The notes beneath the pieces are model-generated. The model did no database searches and was not told where the DNA came from. It saw only the letters and a program-made list of their open reading frames with translations. Positions 26,058-44,695 of a DNA stretch of 64,000 nucleotides are shown in pieces. Each line of letters begins with the position of its first letter. Position 1 is the first letter of the stretch. The stretch is from an uncultured bacterium (lineage in GTDB: Bacteria; Fidelibacterota; Marinisomatia; Marinisomatales; JABMOV01): the NCBI GenBank assembly GCA_964344305.1, contig CAYFMT010000007.1:26886-90885 (forward strand), in the 5' to 3' direction. The translations under genes and the position numbers were made by a program.

Positions 26058-26939
26058 CTAAGAATTCATTGCGGATTTTTCTGCCGCCTCTATTGTATTT
26101 TCAACTAGCATGGCTATGGTCATTGGTCCAACACCACCTGGCACCGGCGTCATTGCGAATGCAATATTTTCCAGGGATTTTCTATCTACATCGCCAGTAA
26201 GGCGATACCCACGTTCACGTTCAGGCGCATCCACCCTGTTTATGCCAACATCAATGACAATCGCATCTCTTTTCACATAGGAGTCGTTGATTAATTCTGG
26301 CACGCCAATAGCCGCGATCACAACATCCGCATCTTTTGTTACAGCAGGGATATCTTTGGTGCCGGAATGACAAATAGTTGTGGTTGCATTTGATCCTTTG
26401 GTTTTCAAGCTGGTCAAAAGAGACATTGGACGACCAACTATATTGCTCCTGCCAACGATCACCACATGTTTCCCGGAAAGATCAATATTATAATGTTCCA
26501 ATATTCGCATCACACCCTTAGGTGTACATGGAATAAATTCAGGCCTTCCTTGTGCCAGTTTTCCAATATTCACAGGATGAAATCCATCCACGTCTTTCTC
26601 AGGTAGAATATTATCAAGTATGCGGTCAGAATTAATGTGTTCTGGGAGAGGCAGTTGTACAAGAATTCCATGAAATCGATCATCTTGATTTAATTTATGG
26701 ATATGATAGAGCAGTTCACTTTCAGGAGTATTCTCCGGCAGCACAATGGTTTCTGAAAGCAGGTTCAAGGATGCAAATTTCTTTGCCTTACTGTTCACAT
26801 ATACTTTTGATGCAGGGTCATCTCCAACAAGAACAACAGCGAGACCAGGCACAATATCTTTGGCTTTTAATGTTTCAATTCGAGATGTTAGAGTCGAAAA
26901 AACACTCTGACTCACCTCTTTTCCAGAAAGTAATATCAT
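26058..26939 (-). CDS. folD: bifunctional methylenetetrahydrofolate dehydrogenase / methenyl-THF cyclohydrolase
   Basis: 293 aa with motifs VGDDPAS.VYV..K, GILVQLPLP, GRSNIVGRPM and TPVPGGVGPMT. Confidence 0.95.
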   Translation of the reverse strand: MILLSGKEVSQSVFSTLTSRIETLKAKDIVPGLAVVLVGDDPASKVYVNSKAKKFASLNLLSETIVLPENTPESELLYHIHKLNQDDRFHGILVQLPLPEHINSDRILDNILPEKDVDGFHPVNIGKLAQGRPEFIPCTPKGVMRILEHYNIDLSGKHVVIVGRSNIVGRPMSLLTSLKTKGSNATTTICHSGTKDIPAVTKDADVVIAAIGVPELINDSYVKRDAIVIDVGINRVDAPERERGYRLTGDVDRKSLENIAFAMTPVPGGVGPMTIAMLVENTIEAAEKSAMNS

Positions 26940-33854: not shown

Positions 33855-33983
33855 AGAAATTTATTATGAAATATTCAATTAAAAAGCACGAGCGGTTGTG
33901 TTCAGACGTAAAAAGCCTGTTACACAAGTATGTATAGATATGTGATGGTCTTGTTTCTTAAGAATCATTTGTTTGATTTCCTG

Positions 33984-34057
33984 TGGGCGATAACGGATTC
34001 GAACCATTGACCTCTACGATGTCAACGTAGCGCTCTAACCAACTGAGCTAATCGCCC
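33984..34057 (-). tRNA. tRNA-Val (anticodon GAC)
   Basis: Reverse complement reads GGGCGAT-TA-GCTC-AGTTGGTTA-GAGC-G-CTACG-TTGACAT-CGTAG-AGGTC-AATGG-TTCGAAT-CCGTT-ATCGCCC-A. Confidence 0.9.
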
Positions 34058-38549: not shown

Positions 38550-40079
38550 TTATAAGTCGAATTTAATTCCCTGAGCCAAAGGCAGGTCCTTGCTCCAGTT
38601 TATTGTGTTTGTCTGGCGACGCATATAGGCTTTCCAGGAGTCTGAGCCTGATTCCCTGCCGCCTCCTGTCTCCTTCTCACCACCAAACGCTCCGCCAATC
38701 TCTGCACCGGATGTCCCAATATTGACATTGGCAATTCCACAGTCGCTGCCGCGAGAAGATAAAAATTCTTCTGCATGCTGAACATTCATCGTGAAGATAG
38801 ATGACGATAATCCCTGGGGAACGCCATTGTGTAGTTCAAGTGCATCATCCAAATCCTTATATGTAATAATATATAGGATTGGGGCAAATGTTTCATGTTG
38901 CACTATATCCCACTCATTCCTTGCTTTTACAATGGTAGGTTCGACAAAAAATCCATCACCATCCATGGCATTTCCGCCATAAAGAATTTCACCACCTGCT
39001 TCTTTTACTTTTTCTATAGCTCCACTATAATCCTCTACCGCAGCCTGGTTGACGAGTGGCCCCATAAGTGTACCATCCTCAATTGGGTTGCCAATTTTCA
39101 CCTGACCATAGGCATGGACAAGTTTCTCAATCAAGGTATCTGCTATGGACTCCTGAACGATGATACGACGAGTGGATGTGCATCGCTGGCCTGCAGTTCC
39201 AACTGCACCAAACACAATAGCTGGAATTGCCATGGATAAATCCGCTGATTCATCCACGATGATGGCGTTATTTCCACCCAATTCCAGAATGGATTTTCCA
39301 AACCTCTTTGCGACTGCTTCACCAACATGTCTTCCCATATAGGTTGACCCTGTAAAAGAAATCAATGGTACGCGAGTATCTTTGATCAATTCCTCACCAA
39401 TGGTGGAGCCTCGACCAATTATGATACTAAAAATGCCTGAATACCCATTTCTTTCCATGACACTGTTGCAGATATTCTGAACGGCAATGGCACAGAGAGG
39501 TACAGTGCTTGATGGTTTCCAGATGACAGTATTTCCGCAAATAGCAGCGATGAATGCGTTCCATGCCCATACCGCAACGGGAAAGTTGAAAGCACTGATG
39601 ACGCCTACAGGACCGAGTGGATGCCATTGTTCGTACATGCGATGATCGGGACGTTCTGAATGCATGGTATTTCCATACAGCATACGTGATTGTCCAACAG
39701 CAAAATCCGCAATATCGATCATTTCCTGGACTTCCCCATCACCTTCAGCCTTGATTTTCCCCATTTCCAGCGATACGAGGGATCCGAGTAAATCTTTATA
39801 CTTTCGTAATTCATCCCCCATCTGACGAACAAGTTCACCACGAATAGGAGCCGGAACTTTCCTGAATTCCTTAAATGCTGTAACGGAATCCTGTACCACC
39901 TGCTCATAATCGTTTAGACTGCATTGATAAACGTGTCCAAGAGTCTCACCTGTTGCTGGATTCAAGGATGTTAGAGTCCCTGCATCTAATGTTTTTGACC
40001 ATGTTCCTGTTCCTGTACAGGCACCATAATTGTATTCTTTTATCCCAAGTCCTGTTAAGATATCGTTGATTGTGGACAT
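38550..40079 (-). CDS. pcd: ALDH7-type aldehyde dehydrogenase (alpha-aminoadipic semialdehyde / piperideine-6-carboxylate dehydrogenase)
   Basis: 509 aa with ALDH motifs (ELGGNNA, catalytic GTAGQRCT). N-terminal and overall pattern resemble antiquitin/Pcd, and it lies directly downstream of lat. Confidence 0.8.
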
Positions 40080-40171
40080 TTTTTGCTCCTAAAATGTGGA
40101 AATGTTGTAAAAATCCAGCAGAGAAGTTATTAGTTTAAAACACGAGAAAAAATGCTAGTGAATAGATATAT

Positions 40172-40203
40172 AAAAAAACCTGTCTATTATGACAGGTTTT
40201 TTT
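40172..40203 (-). terminator. rho-independent (bidirectional-type) terminator
   Basis: 8-bp stem AACCTGTC / GACAGGTT with a 6-nt loop, flanked by A7 on one side and T7 on the other. It sits just 3' of the selenoprotein gene stop at 40208. Confidence 0.8.
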
Positions 40204-40207
40204 GAAT

Positions 40208-41248
40208 TCATTCTTTTTCCAGGAATTTATTTTTCTGTTTCAGATAGTAATCGTCATCCGGTTGAAGTGCAATACACTTGTCAATAATCATCACCGCATC
40301 ATCAATTTTACCTAACTTCCATAACACCTCTGCCTCTGTATCCATCACCTGGGCTATTGCAAGTGTCTCTTTCTCTTCGATCATTGATACTGCACGTCGA
40401 ACTTTTTCTAAGGCATCATTCAAATAAAGATCCAGCTCGGTCATCCGCCAGGCATACCCATTCAATAAACTGTAACTGTCCTTACCCATTTTTATGGCGA
40501 GATCTGTCAGTTTTTTGTAGGCTTCAGCTTCTTCCGAGTGTGCCTTTGCTTGTTTGAAGTGTTTAACCAGGGATGAATACGCGGTAGGCAAATATTCACT
40601 TTCCGGGAAGGAGGTAATGAAATCAGTAATTCTATCAATCTTTCCCTCCTGGGAAAGTCTGTACTGGGCACTTTTTAACTTTGCATATTCAACCAGAGTT
40701 TCATCGAGATCAGCTACGTTTTTCCAGGCGTCCATAGCACTGGATAAATCACCTTTATCCTCGTATTTCTCAGCGAGCGCTTTCAACATCTCTATATCTC
40801 CAGGATTCTTCTGCAATTCTTTTTCCATGGAAGATATTGTACCAAGATTCTTGCGAATCCTCTCCAATTCGTCAATAAACTCTTTTGGGGGTAAATACCC
40901 TACTATCCGATCTATCTCCTCACCATTCGCATCAGCAACAATGGTGGTCGGGAACCCCTGAATATGATATTTATCCTTAAGAAATGGTCCATTGCCTTTT
41001 TCACCATCCACTTTAAGGGCCAGAAAATATGTTGATGCGTATTTGATAACTTCCTTATCAGAAAATGTCTCGGCATCCAGCCGTTTACACCAACTTCACC
41101 AATCTGTATAAAATTCAATCAACAACAGTTTTTCCCCGGCTTCTGATATCAAATCCTCATAGGATTTATCAGACCAGGGGAATTCCTCTGGAATTGACTG
41201 ACAGGCAAATAGTACTAGCAGAATTGTTGATAACAATATTTTATTCAT
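40208..41248 (-). CDS. thioredoxin-fold (U-x-x-C) + TPR lipoprotein; predicted selenoprotein with in-frame TGA at 41096..41098 read as Sec
   Basis: The ATG at 41248 is in frame (79 codons) with the track ORF 40208..41011. Translation reads MNKILLSTILLVLFAC...LLLIEFYTDW-[TGA]-SWCKRLDAETFSDKEVIKYASTYFLALKVDGEKGNG..., so the TGA replaces the first Cys of WCxxC. A SECIS-like hairpin follows. Confidence 0.7.
41064..41091 (-). promoter_or_regulatory. candidate bacterial SECIS hairpin
   Basis: The mRNA 4 nt after UGA can fold as GGUGU-AAA-CGGC-UGGAU-GCCG-AG-ACAUU. This gives a 5-bp lower stem (2 G-U pairs), an internal loop, a 4-bp GC upper stem, and a G-containing apical loop starting 16 nt after UGA. 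Confidence 0.5.
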
Positions 41249-41261
41249 GATTTGCATAATC

Positions 41262-41675
41262 TCATTCACTTAAATGTTCTTTTAATTTATTCAGTACTTG
41301 TGCTGGAGGTCGCACAGGTTTTTGACTCTTTTTGGAGATGAATACATGGGTGGTTGACCCTTTAACCAGGACTTTATTTTCATTTTGTCTTACTATTTCG
41401 TATTCAATTTCTAATCTCAATTTCGGCAACTCTCTGATTGCGGTCCGAACAATTAGGTTGTCCTCGAATTGTGCCCCTTCAAGATAGTGACAATCAGCAT
41501 GGACAACCGGCAGGTAAACGCCTAAAGTTTCAATGGATGTAACATCCAATTCGATGGAAGCCAGTAATTCTGTTCGCGCTGATTCAAAATACTCCAGATA
41601 ACGGGAATAGTAGACGATACCCATTTGATCAATATCGCGATAATACACTTTTACGTGATAATCATGATGGATCAT
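41262..41675 (-). CDS. 4HBT-family acyl-CoA thioesterase (YbgC-like)
   Basis: 137 aa. The pattern VYYRDIDQMGIVYYSRYLEYFE.ART matches the hotdog-fold YbgC/FadM signature. Confidence 0.8.
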   Translation of the reverse strand: MIHHDYHVKVYYRDIDQMGIVYYSRYLEYFESARTELLASIELDVTSIETLGVYLPVVHADCHYLEGAQFEDNLIVRTAIRELPKLRLEIEYEIVRQNENKVLVKGSTTHVFISKKSQKPVRPPAQVLNKLKEHLSE

Positions 41676-42631
41676 CAGTTTTCGGTATAGGATCCCAGTT
41701 TATCATATTTTTCAATGCGTGAAGCGAGAAAACTTTCAGGGGATGAATTGTATAAAGAATCAAGCTCTTCGCTGATGGCTGATTTCAGCAAATCGAAGGT
41801 AGACTTTGGATCCCTGTGAGCTCCACCATGCGGTTCAGGAATAACCCTGTCACAAACACCCATTTTTACTAGATCACCTGGGATAAGCTTCAAGGCTTCA
41901 GCTGCATCGGATGCTTTTCCTGCATCATGCCAAAGAATAGATGCACACCCTTCCGGACTGATGACAGAATACCATGTATTTTCAAGCATGAGCATCCTGT
42001 CTGCCAATCCAATACCCAATGCTCCACCACTTGCACCTTCACCAATCACAATGGATATTATAGGAACCTGTAACCGGGACATTTCAAACAGATTCTTCGC
42101 GATGGCTTCTCCTTGACCCCTTTCTTCAGCGCCAAGTCCAGGATAGGCACCCTGTGTATCTATGAGGGTTATAATCGGTCTATTAAATTTTTCAGCAAGT
42201 TTCATCAGTCGCAAAGCTTTTCTGTAACCTTCCGGTCGCATCATACCAAAATTTCTATACAGATTCTCCTTTGTATTCCTGCCTTTTTGTTGACCGATAT
42301 ACATTACAGAGCGTCCATTCAATGTACCCAGTCCTCCTACAGTGGATGGGTCATCAGCGAAATGTCGATCACCGTGTAACTCAACAAAATCGGGAGACCA
42401 GTCAGTAATGTAATCCAGAGTGTATGGCCTTTCGGGATGACGTGCCAGTTGGACCCGTTGCCACCGGCTCAAACGTGAAAATATTTTCTCGATGGTATCG
42501 TCACGTCGTTTCTCCAGCTTCGTGATATCCTCTGCATTGCTTAGCGACGGATCATCTGATGTGCGCAATTCAATAATTTTTTCATCAAGATCCTTGATAG
42601 GATTTTCAAATTCCAGATATGTATTGGGCAT
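41675..42631 (-). CDS. accA: acetyl-CoA carboxylase carboxyltransferase alpha subunit
   Basis: 318 aa containing LDFE.PI..L...I..L, HP.RPYTLDYI, DT.GAYPG..AEERGQ.EAIA and GEG.SGGALG. Confidence 0.95.
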   Translation of the reverse strand: MPNTYLEFENPIKDLDEKIIELRTSDDPSLSNAEDITKLEKRRDDTIEKIFSRLSRWQRVQLARHPERPYTLDYITDWSPDFVELHGDRHFADDPSTVGGLGTLNGRSVMYIGQQKGRNTKENLYRNFGMMRPEGYRKALRLMKLAEKFNRPIITLIDTQGAYPGLGAEERGQGEAIAKNLFEMSRLQVPIISIVIGEGASGGALGIGLADRMLMLENTWYSVISPEGCASILWHDAGKASDAAEALKLIPGDLVKMGVCDRVIPEPHGGAHRDPKSTFDLLKSAISEELDSLYNSSPESFLASRIEKYDKLGSYTEN

Positions 42632-42640
42632 ATTCTTCCG

Positions 42641-44695
42641 TTAAAATACCGTTTTTAAAATAATCTCCAGATCCAGTGTCAAACCCTGATTCTGGATATA
42701 GTAATGATCCAAAACTCTTTGATCATCAGCGGAGAAGTTAATATTGCGAAGTCTCTGCATCCCAGTAAGTCCGGGGATGCAAATTAAGTGGGGATCATCT
42801 ACGTTGGTGGGGACAAGTTTGGAACCCACGAAACTCATTTTACCCTGAATGATCTGCGCCATCAAAGGTAAGTATTTGATGAATTGAATTTTGCTGTCAA
42901 AGATACTTGCATTAATTGTCGTATTGTCCTCACCCCAGTAATCCTGTCGAATTCGTCTTCCGTGCATGAATAAGTACACAGGACTACAAATAATCATTAT
43001 GGCGGAAGCAAATACAATATCAAACAGACGCTTAACGACCCAGTTAACTCGATGGAATAGTGTGTACTCAATATGAACAAACGAATAATCACCTAATTCC
43101 TCAATGGATGCCTTACCCAGTAGAATATCCTGGTTGCGAGGTACCATGCGATATGTCAAACGCAAATCCTTAGTATTGTCCATAATGGATAATCCATTTT
43201 TCGACACATAGGAGCTGGATGGAAATATAATTTCACGGATTTTTAATTTGTCAATAATACCACGGATATCTGAGATCCTGCCTACGAACGGAATGGGTAA
43301 CTCATCCTGTGGTACCGTTAACTCAGAATCGCAAAATCCAACTAATTCAAGACCGGTTTCAAAGCGTTTGGATAAATGTTTTGCAATTCGAATGGCTTCT
43401 TTATCCGTACCAATAATTAGGGTTTTCCGCGCAAACAGTATATTATTCTTATCCTTTACCTGTGTGAAATACCCACGACTCATCCAGTAATGAAACAACA
43501 TTCTCCAGCCGGGAATCAACACGGTAATGAGAAGGGTTGCAACAATAATGACCAGGCGTGAAAATGCAAACTGTTTGAAGAAATAAGTGAATGCAGTGGC
43601 AATAAAAAATCCGGACAAAGATGACAGTATTGCACGTGTGTATGACAGAATATATCTTGAATAGAGTTGAAATGTTGCATTAATGATTAACCAGAAAACA
43701 ACATAAATCCCAGGGATGAATCCTCTGGTAACTACTACGGGTTCAAAATCTGTAAACCGGATGGGTATGGCTATAGCAAACGCAGTCAACACGGCAAATG
43801 CATCCAGCGAAATCGACAGGATCTGTGATTTTGACCCGCCAATGATGGCAATGGTTTTCCTGAATCTGACACCTGCTTTCACCATAAACCGAGTCATTCG
43901 CTTTTGACCAACGGAGAAATATTTATCCGCAAATAAAATCATGGCAGAGTAAAATGCCTGAATACTGTCATAGGGAGCTGATTTTACAGATTCGCCATGG
44001 AAATGGATGATTTTTGCTTCAGGTAAATAATGAATTTCCTTTCCGCTTATTTTCACCTGGAAACAGAGATCAAGATCTTCCCCGAACATGAAATATCGCT
44101 CATCAAAACCATGAAGATCATGGTAAAGGTCGGACCGAATAAACATGCATGACCCGCTGATGGCTTCCACTGAATGTATGTCATCTGGATCTAGATAGGT
44201 AAGATTGTATTTTCCGGCCCATTTGGAACGAGGGAACAATTTTGATAATCCCAATAATTTTGGCAGGGCAACCATAGGTCTGGGGAATGACCGTTTGCAT
44301 GCAGGTTGAAGAGATCCATCCGTGTTCAGTATTTTTGGTCCCACCATGCCAACATGGTTTTGGGATTCCATGTAATTGACGAATGTTTCAACGGTGGATT
44401 CCTCAAGGATCGTATCCGGGTTCAATATTAAATAATAGTCGCCATTTGCAACATCTGCAGCCTGGTTTACCGCTTTCCCAAACCCCAGATTTGTTGAATT
44501 ATGAATGATTTGAATATTCTCGGGGAGATCCTTGATTGCCTCTGCAGAGCCATCGTATGAGTTATTGTCAACAACAACAACATCGATATCACCCTTATAA
44601 CTAGAGGATAAAACCGTATCAATACAATGAAGGAGGTATTGTTTTACATTATAACTGACAATTAAAACCGAAACAGTCGGATTTTTGGGGTCCAT
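42641..44695 (-). CDS. fusion protein: GT2 glycosyltransferase + polytopic membrane region + CoA-binding-like domain + degenerate bacterial sugar-transferase (PGT) domain
   Basis: The N-terminal ~290 aa is GT2 (VSVLIVSYN...VVDNNS.DGS...DED). The middle has ~5 TM helices and a WbaP-like Rossmann segment (TLIIGTDKEA..IA). The C-terminus resembles Bac_transf (KRLFDIVFASAIMIICSPV...PGLTG...LDLEIILKTV) but is shortened. Confidence 0.7.
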   Translation of the reverse strand: MDPKNPTVSVLIVSYNVKQYLLHCIDTVLSSSYKGDIDVVVVDNNSYDGSAEAIKDLPENIQIIHNSTNLGFGKAVNQAADVANGDYYLILNPDTILEESTVETFVNYMESQNHVGMVGPKILNTDGSLQPACKRSFPRPMVALPKLLGLSKLFPRSKWAGKYNLTYLDPDDIHSVEAISGSCMFIRSDLYHDLHGFDERYFMFGEDLDLCFQVKISGKEIHYLPEAKIIHFHGESVKSAPYDSIQAFYSAMILFADKYFSVGQKRMTRFMVKAGVRFRKTIAIIGGSKSQILSISLDAFAVLTAFAIAIPIRFTDFEPVVVTRGFIPGIYVVFWLIINATFQLYSRYILSYTRAILSSLSGFFIATAFTYFFKQFAFSRLVIIVATLLITVLIPGWRMLFHYWMSRGYFTQVKDKNNILFARKTLIIGTDKEAIRIAKHLSKRFETGLELVGFCDSELTVPQDELPIPFVGRISDIRGIIDKLKIREIIFPSSSYVSKNGLSIMDNTKDLRLTYRMVPRNQDILLGKASIEELGDYSFVHIEYTLFHRVNWVVKRLFDIVFASAIMIICSPVYLFMHGRRIRQDYWGEDNTTINASIFDSKIQFIKYLPLMAQIIQGKMSFVGSKLVPTNVDDPHLICIPGLTGMQRLRNINFSADDQRVLDHYYIQNQGLTLDLEIILKTVF

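Follow-up and report, generated by a model that had tools for sequence, protein, structure and literature searches.

The 64,000-nucleotide stretch of DNA analysed here (the window; positions 26,886 to 90,885 of contig CAYFMT010000007.1, from an uncultured bacterium of the Fidelibacterota) very probably contains, at 41248..40208 on the minus strand, one genuine selenoprotein gene, in which an in-frame UGA at codon 51 specifies selenocysteine (Sec) in a thioredoxin (Trx) fold. The 50 sense codons from the ATG at 41248..41246 read MNKILLSTILLVLFACQSIPEEFPWSDKSYEDLISEAGEKLLLIEFYTDW, and after the TGA at 41098..41096 the same frame runs for 295 more codons to a second TGA at 40210..40208, the TGA at codon 51 being the sole in-frame stop across 346 codons. 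The context at this stop is F-Y-T-D-W-[TGA]-S-W-C-K-R-L-D, with SWCKRLDAETF... downstream in frame. The public protein P0001 corresponds exactly to the 267-aa truncation produced by standard calling of open reading frames (ORFs), and the N-terminal piece is called as a separate 50-aa "gene". Full-length homologues with cysteine at codon 51 (Cys forms; 346-385 aa) cover 94-100% of the recoded protein. The original prediction, made from the letters of the window, gave the coordinates of the ATG, the TGA and the ORF correctly and rightly placed the 267-aa ORF in frame with the upstream segment (237 nt, or 79 codons). Its central proposal, that Sec replaces the N-terminal redox Cys in a gene hidden by ORF calling, is supported by the alternation of Sec and Cys at this column, by a covarying hairpin and by the normal use of TGA as a stop elsewhere in the window.

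In alignments with proteins of known structure, codon 51 falls on the nucleophilic Cys that opens the CxxC motif (WCGPC in PDB 2kuc, WCGHC in PDIA3). These alignments, together with the Cys-form homologues carrying W-C-x-W-C, bear out the claim that the stop falls at the first redox Cys. One scan of species-representative genomes gave 80 related loci, nearly all from records labelled Neomarinimicrobiota, Marinimicrobia or Fidelibacterota, and 78 of them align across the codon 51 column. The codon there is TGA in 61 species representatives, TGT in nine and TGC in eight, and none of the 78 has TAA, TAG or another sense codon. Homologues with Cys or another TGA at this position, which the original prediction had named as support, are therefore what was found (17 Cys and 61 TGA species), and nothing else. 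The proteins of the 61 TGA-carrying species are just 31-58% identical, and the window protein shares no more than 58% identity with any of the relatives found. Six loci with a Marinimicrobia-type gene (L004, L021, L034, L035, L044 and L078) come from records titled "Gammaproteobacteria bacterium" or "uncultured Lentisphaeria bacterium", labels that likely reflect binning contamination or wrong taxonomy.

Homologues recovered by database search fall into two classes, one of 346-385 aa with W-C-x-W-C and one of 242-305 aa starting variously just past the motif, and several of the shorter class carry the name "Candidatus Marinimicrobia". At E <= 1e-30, a profile search against 1.84 billion representative proteins returned 759 clusters. 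In about 41 of the top 150, the match starts at residue 1-5 but no earlier than profile position 55, the mark of a truncated Sec form.

In one sequence alone, a stop in an otherwise intact gene resembles a recent nonsense mutation, but a pseudogene or a strain-specific defect is extremely improbable here. The same column is interrupted in 61 species and always by TGA; for independent events and equal odds of the three stops, this outcome would have a probability of (1/3)^61, or about 8e-30. The frames are open on both sides: downstream, all 61 Sec-form species keep the frame of the TGA, and the segment N-terminal to the UGA is open, with a signal peptide, in 57 of them, the Sec forms lacking an intact N-terminus being contig ends or artefacts of the start-codon heuristic. 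Substitutions are also of the coding type, with an entropy at the three codon positions of 1.07/0.61/1.58 over the 14 codons before the UGA and of 1.24/0.79/1.62 well downstream; this like pattern indicates that both sides are under protein-coding selection.

A sequencing or assembly error, or a genetic code that assigns TGA to an amino acid (table 4 or 25), likewise has next to no probability in our estimation. What speaks for it is a public protein, P0002, the closest public full-length homologue, in which the motif was deposited as W-W-S-W-C, but the underlying DNA has TGA at the column (L085:208-210) and the deposited product disagrees with the table-11 translation of that DNA. The gene lies on a 1.2-kb contig, and the Trp at the Sec column is probably due to a code-4 gene model that read TGA as Trp; such mis-translation could mask selenoproteins as seeming "WxxC" variants. 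In the window locus itself, the identical TGA is present in four independent assemblies from three runs (ERR2281801, ERR2281803 and ERR2281804), and an artefact of a shared assembly pipeline is unlikely given that the relatives come from many independent projects. An assembly error and a strain-specific nonsense mutation, both named in the original prediction as grounds for abandoning it, are thus contradicted by the four assemblies and the 61 species, whose shared TGA also excludes a stop arisen by chance.

As for a reassigned code, 53 non-overlapping ORFs of the window end in TAA (32), TGA (12) or TAG (9), and the genes ended by TGA include gpsA, nusA, infB, pheT, tmk, nadE, an Asn/Asp-type aminoacyl-tRNA synthetase gene, accA, a thioesterase gene and the gene studied here. 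Pfam matches run to the profile ends in the TGA-terminated genes, so that these stops lie at natural C-termini, and the homologues have Cys at the column rather than Trp or Gly. The claim that TGA is a real stop in gpsA, nusA and the Asn/Asp-type synthetase gene holds on this evidence, which contradicts a reassigned code. TGA being an ordinary stop in the window, the meaning of codon 51 is specific to its position. The terminal TGA likewise ends the gene in 13 of the 61 Sec-form relatives.

A further possibility is that UGA 51 is a real stop and that the locus gives separate products, a 50-aa lipopeptide and/or a re-initiated 267-aa ORF, the hairpin serving another purpose. All public gene calls treat the UGA as a stop and a GTG is available at 41011, but the Trx fold would be cut at its active site and the large fragment would have no signal peptide. 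The downstream frame keeps its phase in every Sec-form species, 17 species encode the uninterrupted Cys protein, and the internal starts annotated for truncated homologues scatter over many alignment columns, none of them conserved. We therefore regard separate products as very unlikely.

The second line of evidence for Sec insertion is a candidate selenocysteine insertion sequence (SECIS), a hairpin whose stem starts 12 nt and whose apical loop starts 16 nt past the UGA (CGG CUG GAU GCC G in the window). It sits over the R-L-D-A codons in every Sec-form gene, and its four core pairs are paired in 100% of the 62 Sec-form sequences (61 species and the window). Ten stem variants were found, including the double-compensatory CGAC/GUCG, CGUU/AACG, CUGC/GCAG, CAGC/GCUG, UUGC/GCAA and UGGC/GCCA, and compensation, with changes in both partners, occurs at each of the four pairs. 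In 500 column shuffles, neither the pairing nor the covariation ever reached its observed value, and pairing falls to 16-64% when the partner columns are slid. In the 17 Cys forms, a similar peptide is encoded with scattered codons and pairing over these columns is 52%; a full stem occurs in 61/61 Sec forms against 2/17 Cys forms (Fisher p = 3e-14, a nominal value uncorrected for relatedness). The Arg codon at the hairpin is CGG in 47 of the 61 Sec forms, compared with about 10% of the Arg codons in the window.

The published criteria for bacterial SECIS elements (bSECIS) are an apical loop of 3-9 nt, an upper stem of 4-16 bp, a minimum free energy (MFE) of -7.5 kcal/mol or lower, a G within the first two loop nucleotides with a G or U after it, and a UGA-to-loop distance of 16-37 nt (PMC13188914 Fig. 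2). All 62 sequences have a 5-nt loop, a stem of at least 4 bp, G[G/U] in the loop and the 16-nt spacing, and the MFE lies within the limit in 58 of them, that of the window element being -8.9 to -10.2 kcal/mol. Pairing of the lower stem across relatives is 77%, in a register that varies by clade, which gives only partial support to an extended element. In 2.5 Mb of strand, the pattern of a TGA, 12 nt, a GC-rich 4-bp stem and an N-G-[G/U]-N-N loop occurs at 62 sites of the family and at just seven others, none of which is flanked by open frames as long as 20 codons upstream and 40 downstream. A permissive Rfam search of the region returned chance-level matches only and no family.

Several points weigh against a selenoprotein gene decoded in this way. 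The universally conserved stem is just 4 bp long, the 16-nt spacing is the lower limit of the bSECIS model, and the single-sequence fold is just modestly more stable than shuffles (z = -1.9 to -2.0). Because the R-L-D-A peptide encoded at the hairpin is itself conserved, part of the sequence conservation of the hairpin is at the protein level, although the codon choice and the covariation are the parts that protein-level selection leaves unexplained. Two Cys forms retain the hairpin. No conserved redox partner gene of the DsbD/CcdA type was found nearby among the related loci. Finally, no selA, selB, selD or tRNA-Sec gene was found in the window, in about 10 kb past each of its ends (about 84 kb of contig in all) or in about 1.2 Mb of the relatives' flanks. 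For the tRNA, ARAGORN and Rfam gave six ordinary tRNAs and no tRNA-Sec in the window, and ARAGORN none in 85 loci; for the proteins, tblastn with E. coli SelA, SelB and SelD probes gave a single match, to an IF-2 GTPase domain.

That no machinery was found in these sequences speaks for a reading in which UGA 51 is recoded but not as Sec through canonical SelB, either by hairpin-stimulated insertion of a near-cognate Trp or Cys or by an unconventional Sec pathway. The sole documented selenium gene of the phylum, moreover, is selD, reported from three SAR406 single-cell genomes and "orphan" in those partial assemblies (PMC5029168); apart from this report, our literature search gave nothing specific on Sec decoding in Marinimicrobia. 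Those single-cell genomes are incomplete, and the machinery genes may lie beyond the 84 kb of contig searched. Cys is the sole alternative to TGA at this catalytic position of a CxxC motif, which is the standard Sec/Cys signature, and the hairpin fits a SelB-type bSECIS in position and loop sequence in all 62 sequences. We therefore judge recoding of another kind improbable, and a reading in which the phylum decodes this UGA without the canonical SelA/SelB system very unlikely. A scan for a second selenoprotein, based on Sec/Cys pairs in the window and the 1.2 Mb of flanks, left no credible candidate after filtering; it was first flooded by antisense shadow ORFs, and its sensitivity is low, as Cys homologues are needed in the same small set.

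Together, the alternation of Sec with Cys and a hairpin of the SECIS type suggest insertion of Sec by the canonical SelB route. As in E. coli fdhF, the mRNA hairpin following UGA 51 would recruit SelB-GTP-Sec-tRNA(Sec), so that Sec is inserted rather than translation terminated, and the second UGA, at codon 347 and with no hairpin, would terminate translation normally.

The family is mostly of the Sec form in Marinimicrobia/Fidelibacterota and has undergone several Sec/Cys switches. About nine separate groups of Cys forms can be told apart, several of which have Sec forms as nearest relatives; for example, the Cys form L026 is 77% identical to the Sec form L039, and the Cys form L038 is 52% identical to L020. 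These two Cys forms are the ones that retain an intact CGGCUGGAUGCCG hairpin (L026, 4848-4907; L038, 10142-10201), which looks like a relic SECIS left by a recent replacement of Sec by Cys.

The encoded protein combines three parts. Its N-terminus has a predicted signal peptide with a lipobox (MNKILLSTILLVLF-A-C16), and a strict lipobox pattern is present in 44 of the 61 Sec-form relatives, pointing to an exported protein. With Cys written at codon 51, Pfam assigns the next part to PF13098 Thioredoxin_2 (54.7 bits, cut-off 27) and PF00085 (39.1 bits, cut-off 23.5). The structure was examined on an AlphaFold2 model of P0003, a Cys form of equal length and 51% identity, in place of the window protein (mean pLDDT 94.5, pTM 0.83): a Trx fold at residues ~25-132, with the C/UxxC motif at the start of helix 52-60, is followed by twelve helices (138-344) that resemble tetratricopeptide repeats (TPR). 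Foldseek against the PDB matches the N-terminal domain to DsbD-gamma, DsbH, 2kuc and a Bacteroides cytochrome-c-biogenesis-related Trx (TMt 0.68-0.81; 0.70-0.81 for the first three) and the C-terminal domain to TPR superhelices. Whole-protein NCBIfam scores are below cut-off for DsbD (NF001419, 55/330 bits), DsbH (NF043050, 39/190) and TsoB (NF045694, 69/805), also for five other clade representatives, and the likeness is at the domain level only, for TsoB to its DsbD-like domain. Invariant residues lie mostly in the TPR half (LNGYAWRM, DTEAEVLWK and C325-I-x-x-x-P). The Cys at codon 325 (~40276..40274) belongs to the motif D-x-C-I-x-L-Q-P of the last repeat. It never varies in the first alignment, is kept in at least 90% of the sequences of a larger one, and may have a structural role or be a third residue with redox activity.

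To judge by its fold and active-site motif, the product, a predicted lipoprotein on the periplasmic side, may act as a disulfide reductase or isomerase. Sec51 would be the exposed nucleophile attacking substrate disulfides or oxidised thiols, and Cys54 would resolve the selenenylsulfide; fold and motif are observed, location and chemistry predicted. The fused TPR domain would most likely bind client proteins or a partner, in an architecture similar to that of CnoX/YbbN but outside the cytoplasm.

Table 1. Features of the predicted selenoprotein locus and its surroundings (window coordinates)
Feature	Position	Strand	Remarks
Recoded coding sequence	40208..41248	-	346 codons with Sec at codon 51, plus terminal TGA; one frame, single internal TGA
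Signal peptide with lipobox	41201..41248	-	Predicted lipoprotein anchor, read from the translation
Trx-fold domain, residues ~25-132, DsbD-gamma/DsbH-like	40853..41176	-	Pfam and AlphaFold2 model of P0003
UGA codon 51, N-terminal attacking residue of U-S-W-C	41096..41098	-	Read as selenocysteine
Cys54 codon, resolving Cys of UxxC	41087..41089	-	TGT or TGC in 78/78 relatives
SECIS core hairpin (candidate)	41071..41083	-	Stem CGGC 41083..41080, loop UGGAU 41079..41075, stem GCCG 41074..41071
Extended SECIS stem-loop (candidate)	41064..41091	-	Lower stem GGUGU/ACAUU around core; MFE -8.9 kcal/mol, z = -2.0
ORF from standard gene calling, 267 aa	40208..41011	-	GTG start inside the Trx fold; artefactual
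C-terminal all-alpha TPR-like domain, residues ~138-344	40217..40837	-	Sub-threshold TPR Pfam hits; 12 helices in the AlphaFold2 model, pLDDT >90
Terminator codon of the gene, also TGA	40208..40210	-	Genuine; no SECIS-like hairpin after it
Terminator-like hairpin, 14-pair stem, A-run/T-run flanks	40171..40204	.	Directly after the gene
accA (42631..41675) and 4HBT thioesterase gene (41675..41262)	41262..42631	-	Pfam; upstream, co-oriented, 13 nt from the selenoprotein gene start

The gene probably forms a co-transcribed operon with accA and the thioesterase gene, a pair that also lies upstream in about a third of the related loci (about 25 of 78). The gene order accA - thioesterase - selenoprotein, with a tRNA-Val(GAC) about 7 kb downstream (33983..34057), is common to the window and its closest relatives (L001-L003), and supports placing the window organism in Marinimicrobia/Fidelibacterota. 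Further upstream, a 684-aa ORF (42641..44695, minus strand) encodes a family-2 glycosyltransferase fused to CoA_binding_3 and a Bac_transf C-terminus, and the same fusion is found upstream in 18 related loci. On the other side, the hairpin at 40171..40204, which from its sequence looks like a bidirectional intrinsic terminator, separates the gene from a downstream aldehyde dehydrogenase gene (38550..40079). Recurrent neighbours are limited to accA, the thioesterase and the glycosyltransferase, plus NrfD-like genes in one clade: in L022 (5202-6638) and 11 other loci of a clade with the motif W-U-G-S-C, NrfD/polysulfide-reductase-like membrane proteins are encoded upstream, sometimes as two paralogues. 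These genes may be part of a respiratory cluster of the alternative-complex-III type, a hint at a role in the maturation of respiratory complexes.

In the dark and low-oxygen ocean, Marinimicrobia (SAR406) belong to the most abundant bacteria that are still uncultured. Most of the sampled species encode this protein with Sec and public gene calls split or truncate it, so that redox and metabolic inventories of the phylum miss the protein and the selenium dependence of the group goes unnoticed. The broader proposal, to which we give about even weight, is that of an undescribed, Sec-dominant family of Marinimicrobia/Fidelibacterota, a lipoprotein-anchored DsbD-gamma-like selenothioredoxin fused to a TPR domain for clients, or extracytoplasmic "seleno-chaperedoxin", with a minimal 4-bp SECIS in its R-L-D-A codons, represented by no curated model and systematically truncated in annotation. 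If this is true, the family would be a natural experiment on why Sec is kept, with some nine independent switches between Sec and Cys and two SECIS "fossils". The 61 Sec and 17 Cys forms, with their repeated switches and relic SECIS elements, could serve as a test set for the cost and benefit of Sec against Cys and for the training of predictors. No new principle is involved, as neither the chemistry of a UxxC Trx fold nor the recoding would surprise a specialist.

Trx-fold proteins with UxxC are the commonest kind of predicted bacterial selenoprotein, and a SECIS within the coding region is textbook knowledge. Like the SECIS of the E. coli fdhF type, the window element is a coding-region stem-loop immediately 3' of the UGA, with a small loop containing G then G/U and a spacing within 16-37 nt; it differs in being very short (4 bp universal), in having the minimum spacing of 16 nt and in lacking sequence similarity.

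At the domain level, the best matches are DsbD-gamma and Chlamydia DsbH, exported periplasmic disulfide reductases with a motif of the W-C-x-x-C type (1vrs, 1uc7, 2fwg and 2ju5; Foldseek TMt 0.70-0.77), from which the window protein differs by the absence of the DsbD membrane domain, the added TPR and Sec in place of Cys. Over the full length, the top Foldseek match is E. coli CnoX/YbbN (PDB 3qou, E = 4e-6), which also has an N-terminal Trx followed by TPR. The global superposition is weak, however (TM 0.25-0.30, 18% identity), and Pfam and NCBIfam gave no sequence-family link. CnoX is moreover a cytoplasmic protein without Sec, and such a location is argued against in the window protein by its signal peptide and lipobox.

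No NCBIfam selenoprotein model captures the window protein. The "UGSC-containing protein" family (NF041046) is Sec-dominant, as is the window family, one marine clade of which has W-U-G-S-C. The identity of this clade with the NF041046 family was considered and rejected, as the model has no match at E <= 1 to the window protein or to members of the clade, and the shared UGSC tetrapeptide is a coincidence. A literature search found no paper uniting selenoprotein, thioredoxin and tetratricopeptide.

The nearest described selenoproteins are DsbD-gamma-like UxxC proteins, known since 2004-2008 (Kryukov & Gladyshev 2004; the Global Ocean Sampling (GOS) survey; PMC13188914; PMC2398784 Table 2), and a "Thiol:disulfide interchange protein" family (PF13098/cd02953, UxxC) is listed as a high-confidence prediction (PMC13188914 Table 1). 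The window protein shares with these "Thiol:disulfide interchange protein" or "Trx-like 2" selenoproteins PF13098 as the best Pfam match, a DsbD-gamma-like domain, Sec as the first residue of UxxC, a SECIS directly downstream in the coding region and an origin in marine microbes; the likeness to the family, whose exemplar is WP_011366075.1, is one of domain and motif. The lipobox and the C-terminal TPR of about 210 residues distinguish the window clade and go unmentioned in PMC13188914 and PMC2398784. The window protein is therefore a known kind of selenoprotein and an unannotated new member, arguably of a new subfamily, whose 61 Sec against 17 Cys species contrast with the 22 Sec and 2,098 Cys forms of "Trx-like 2" in the GOS survey (PMC2398784).

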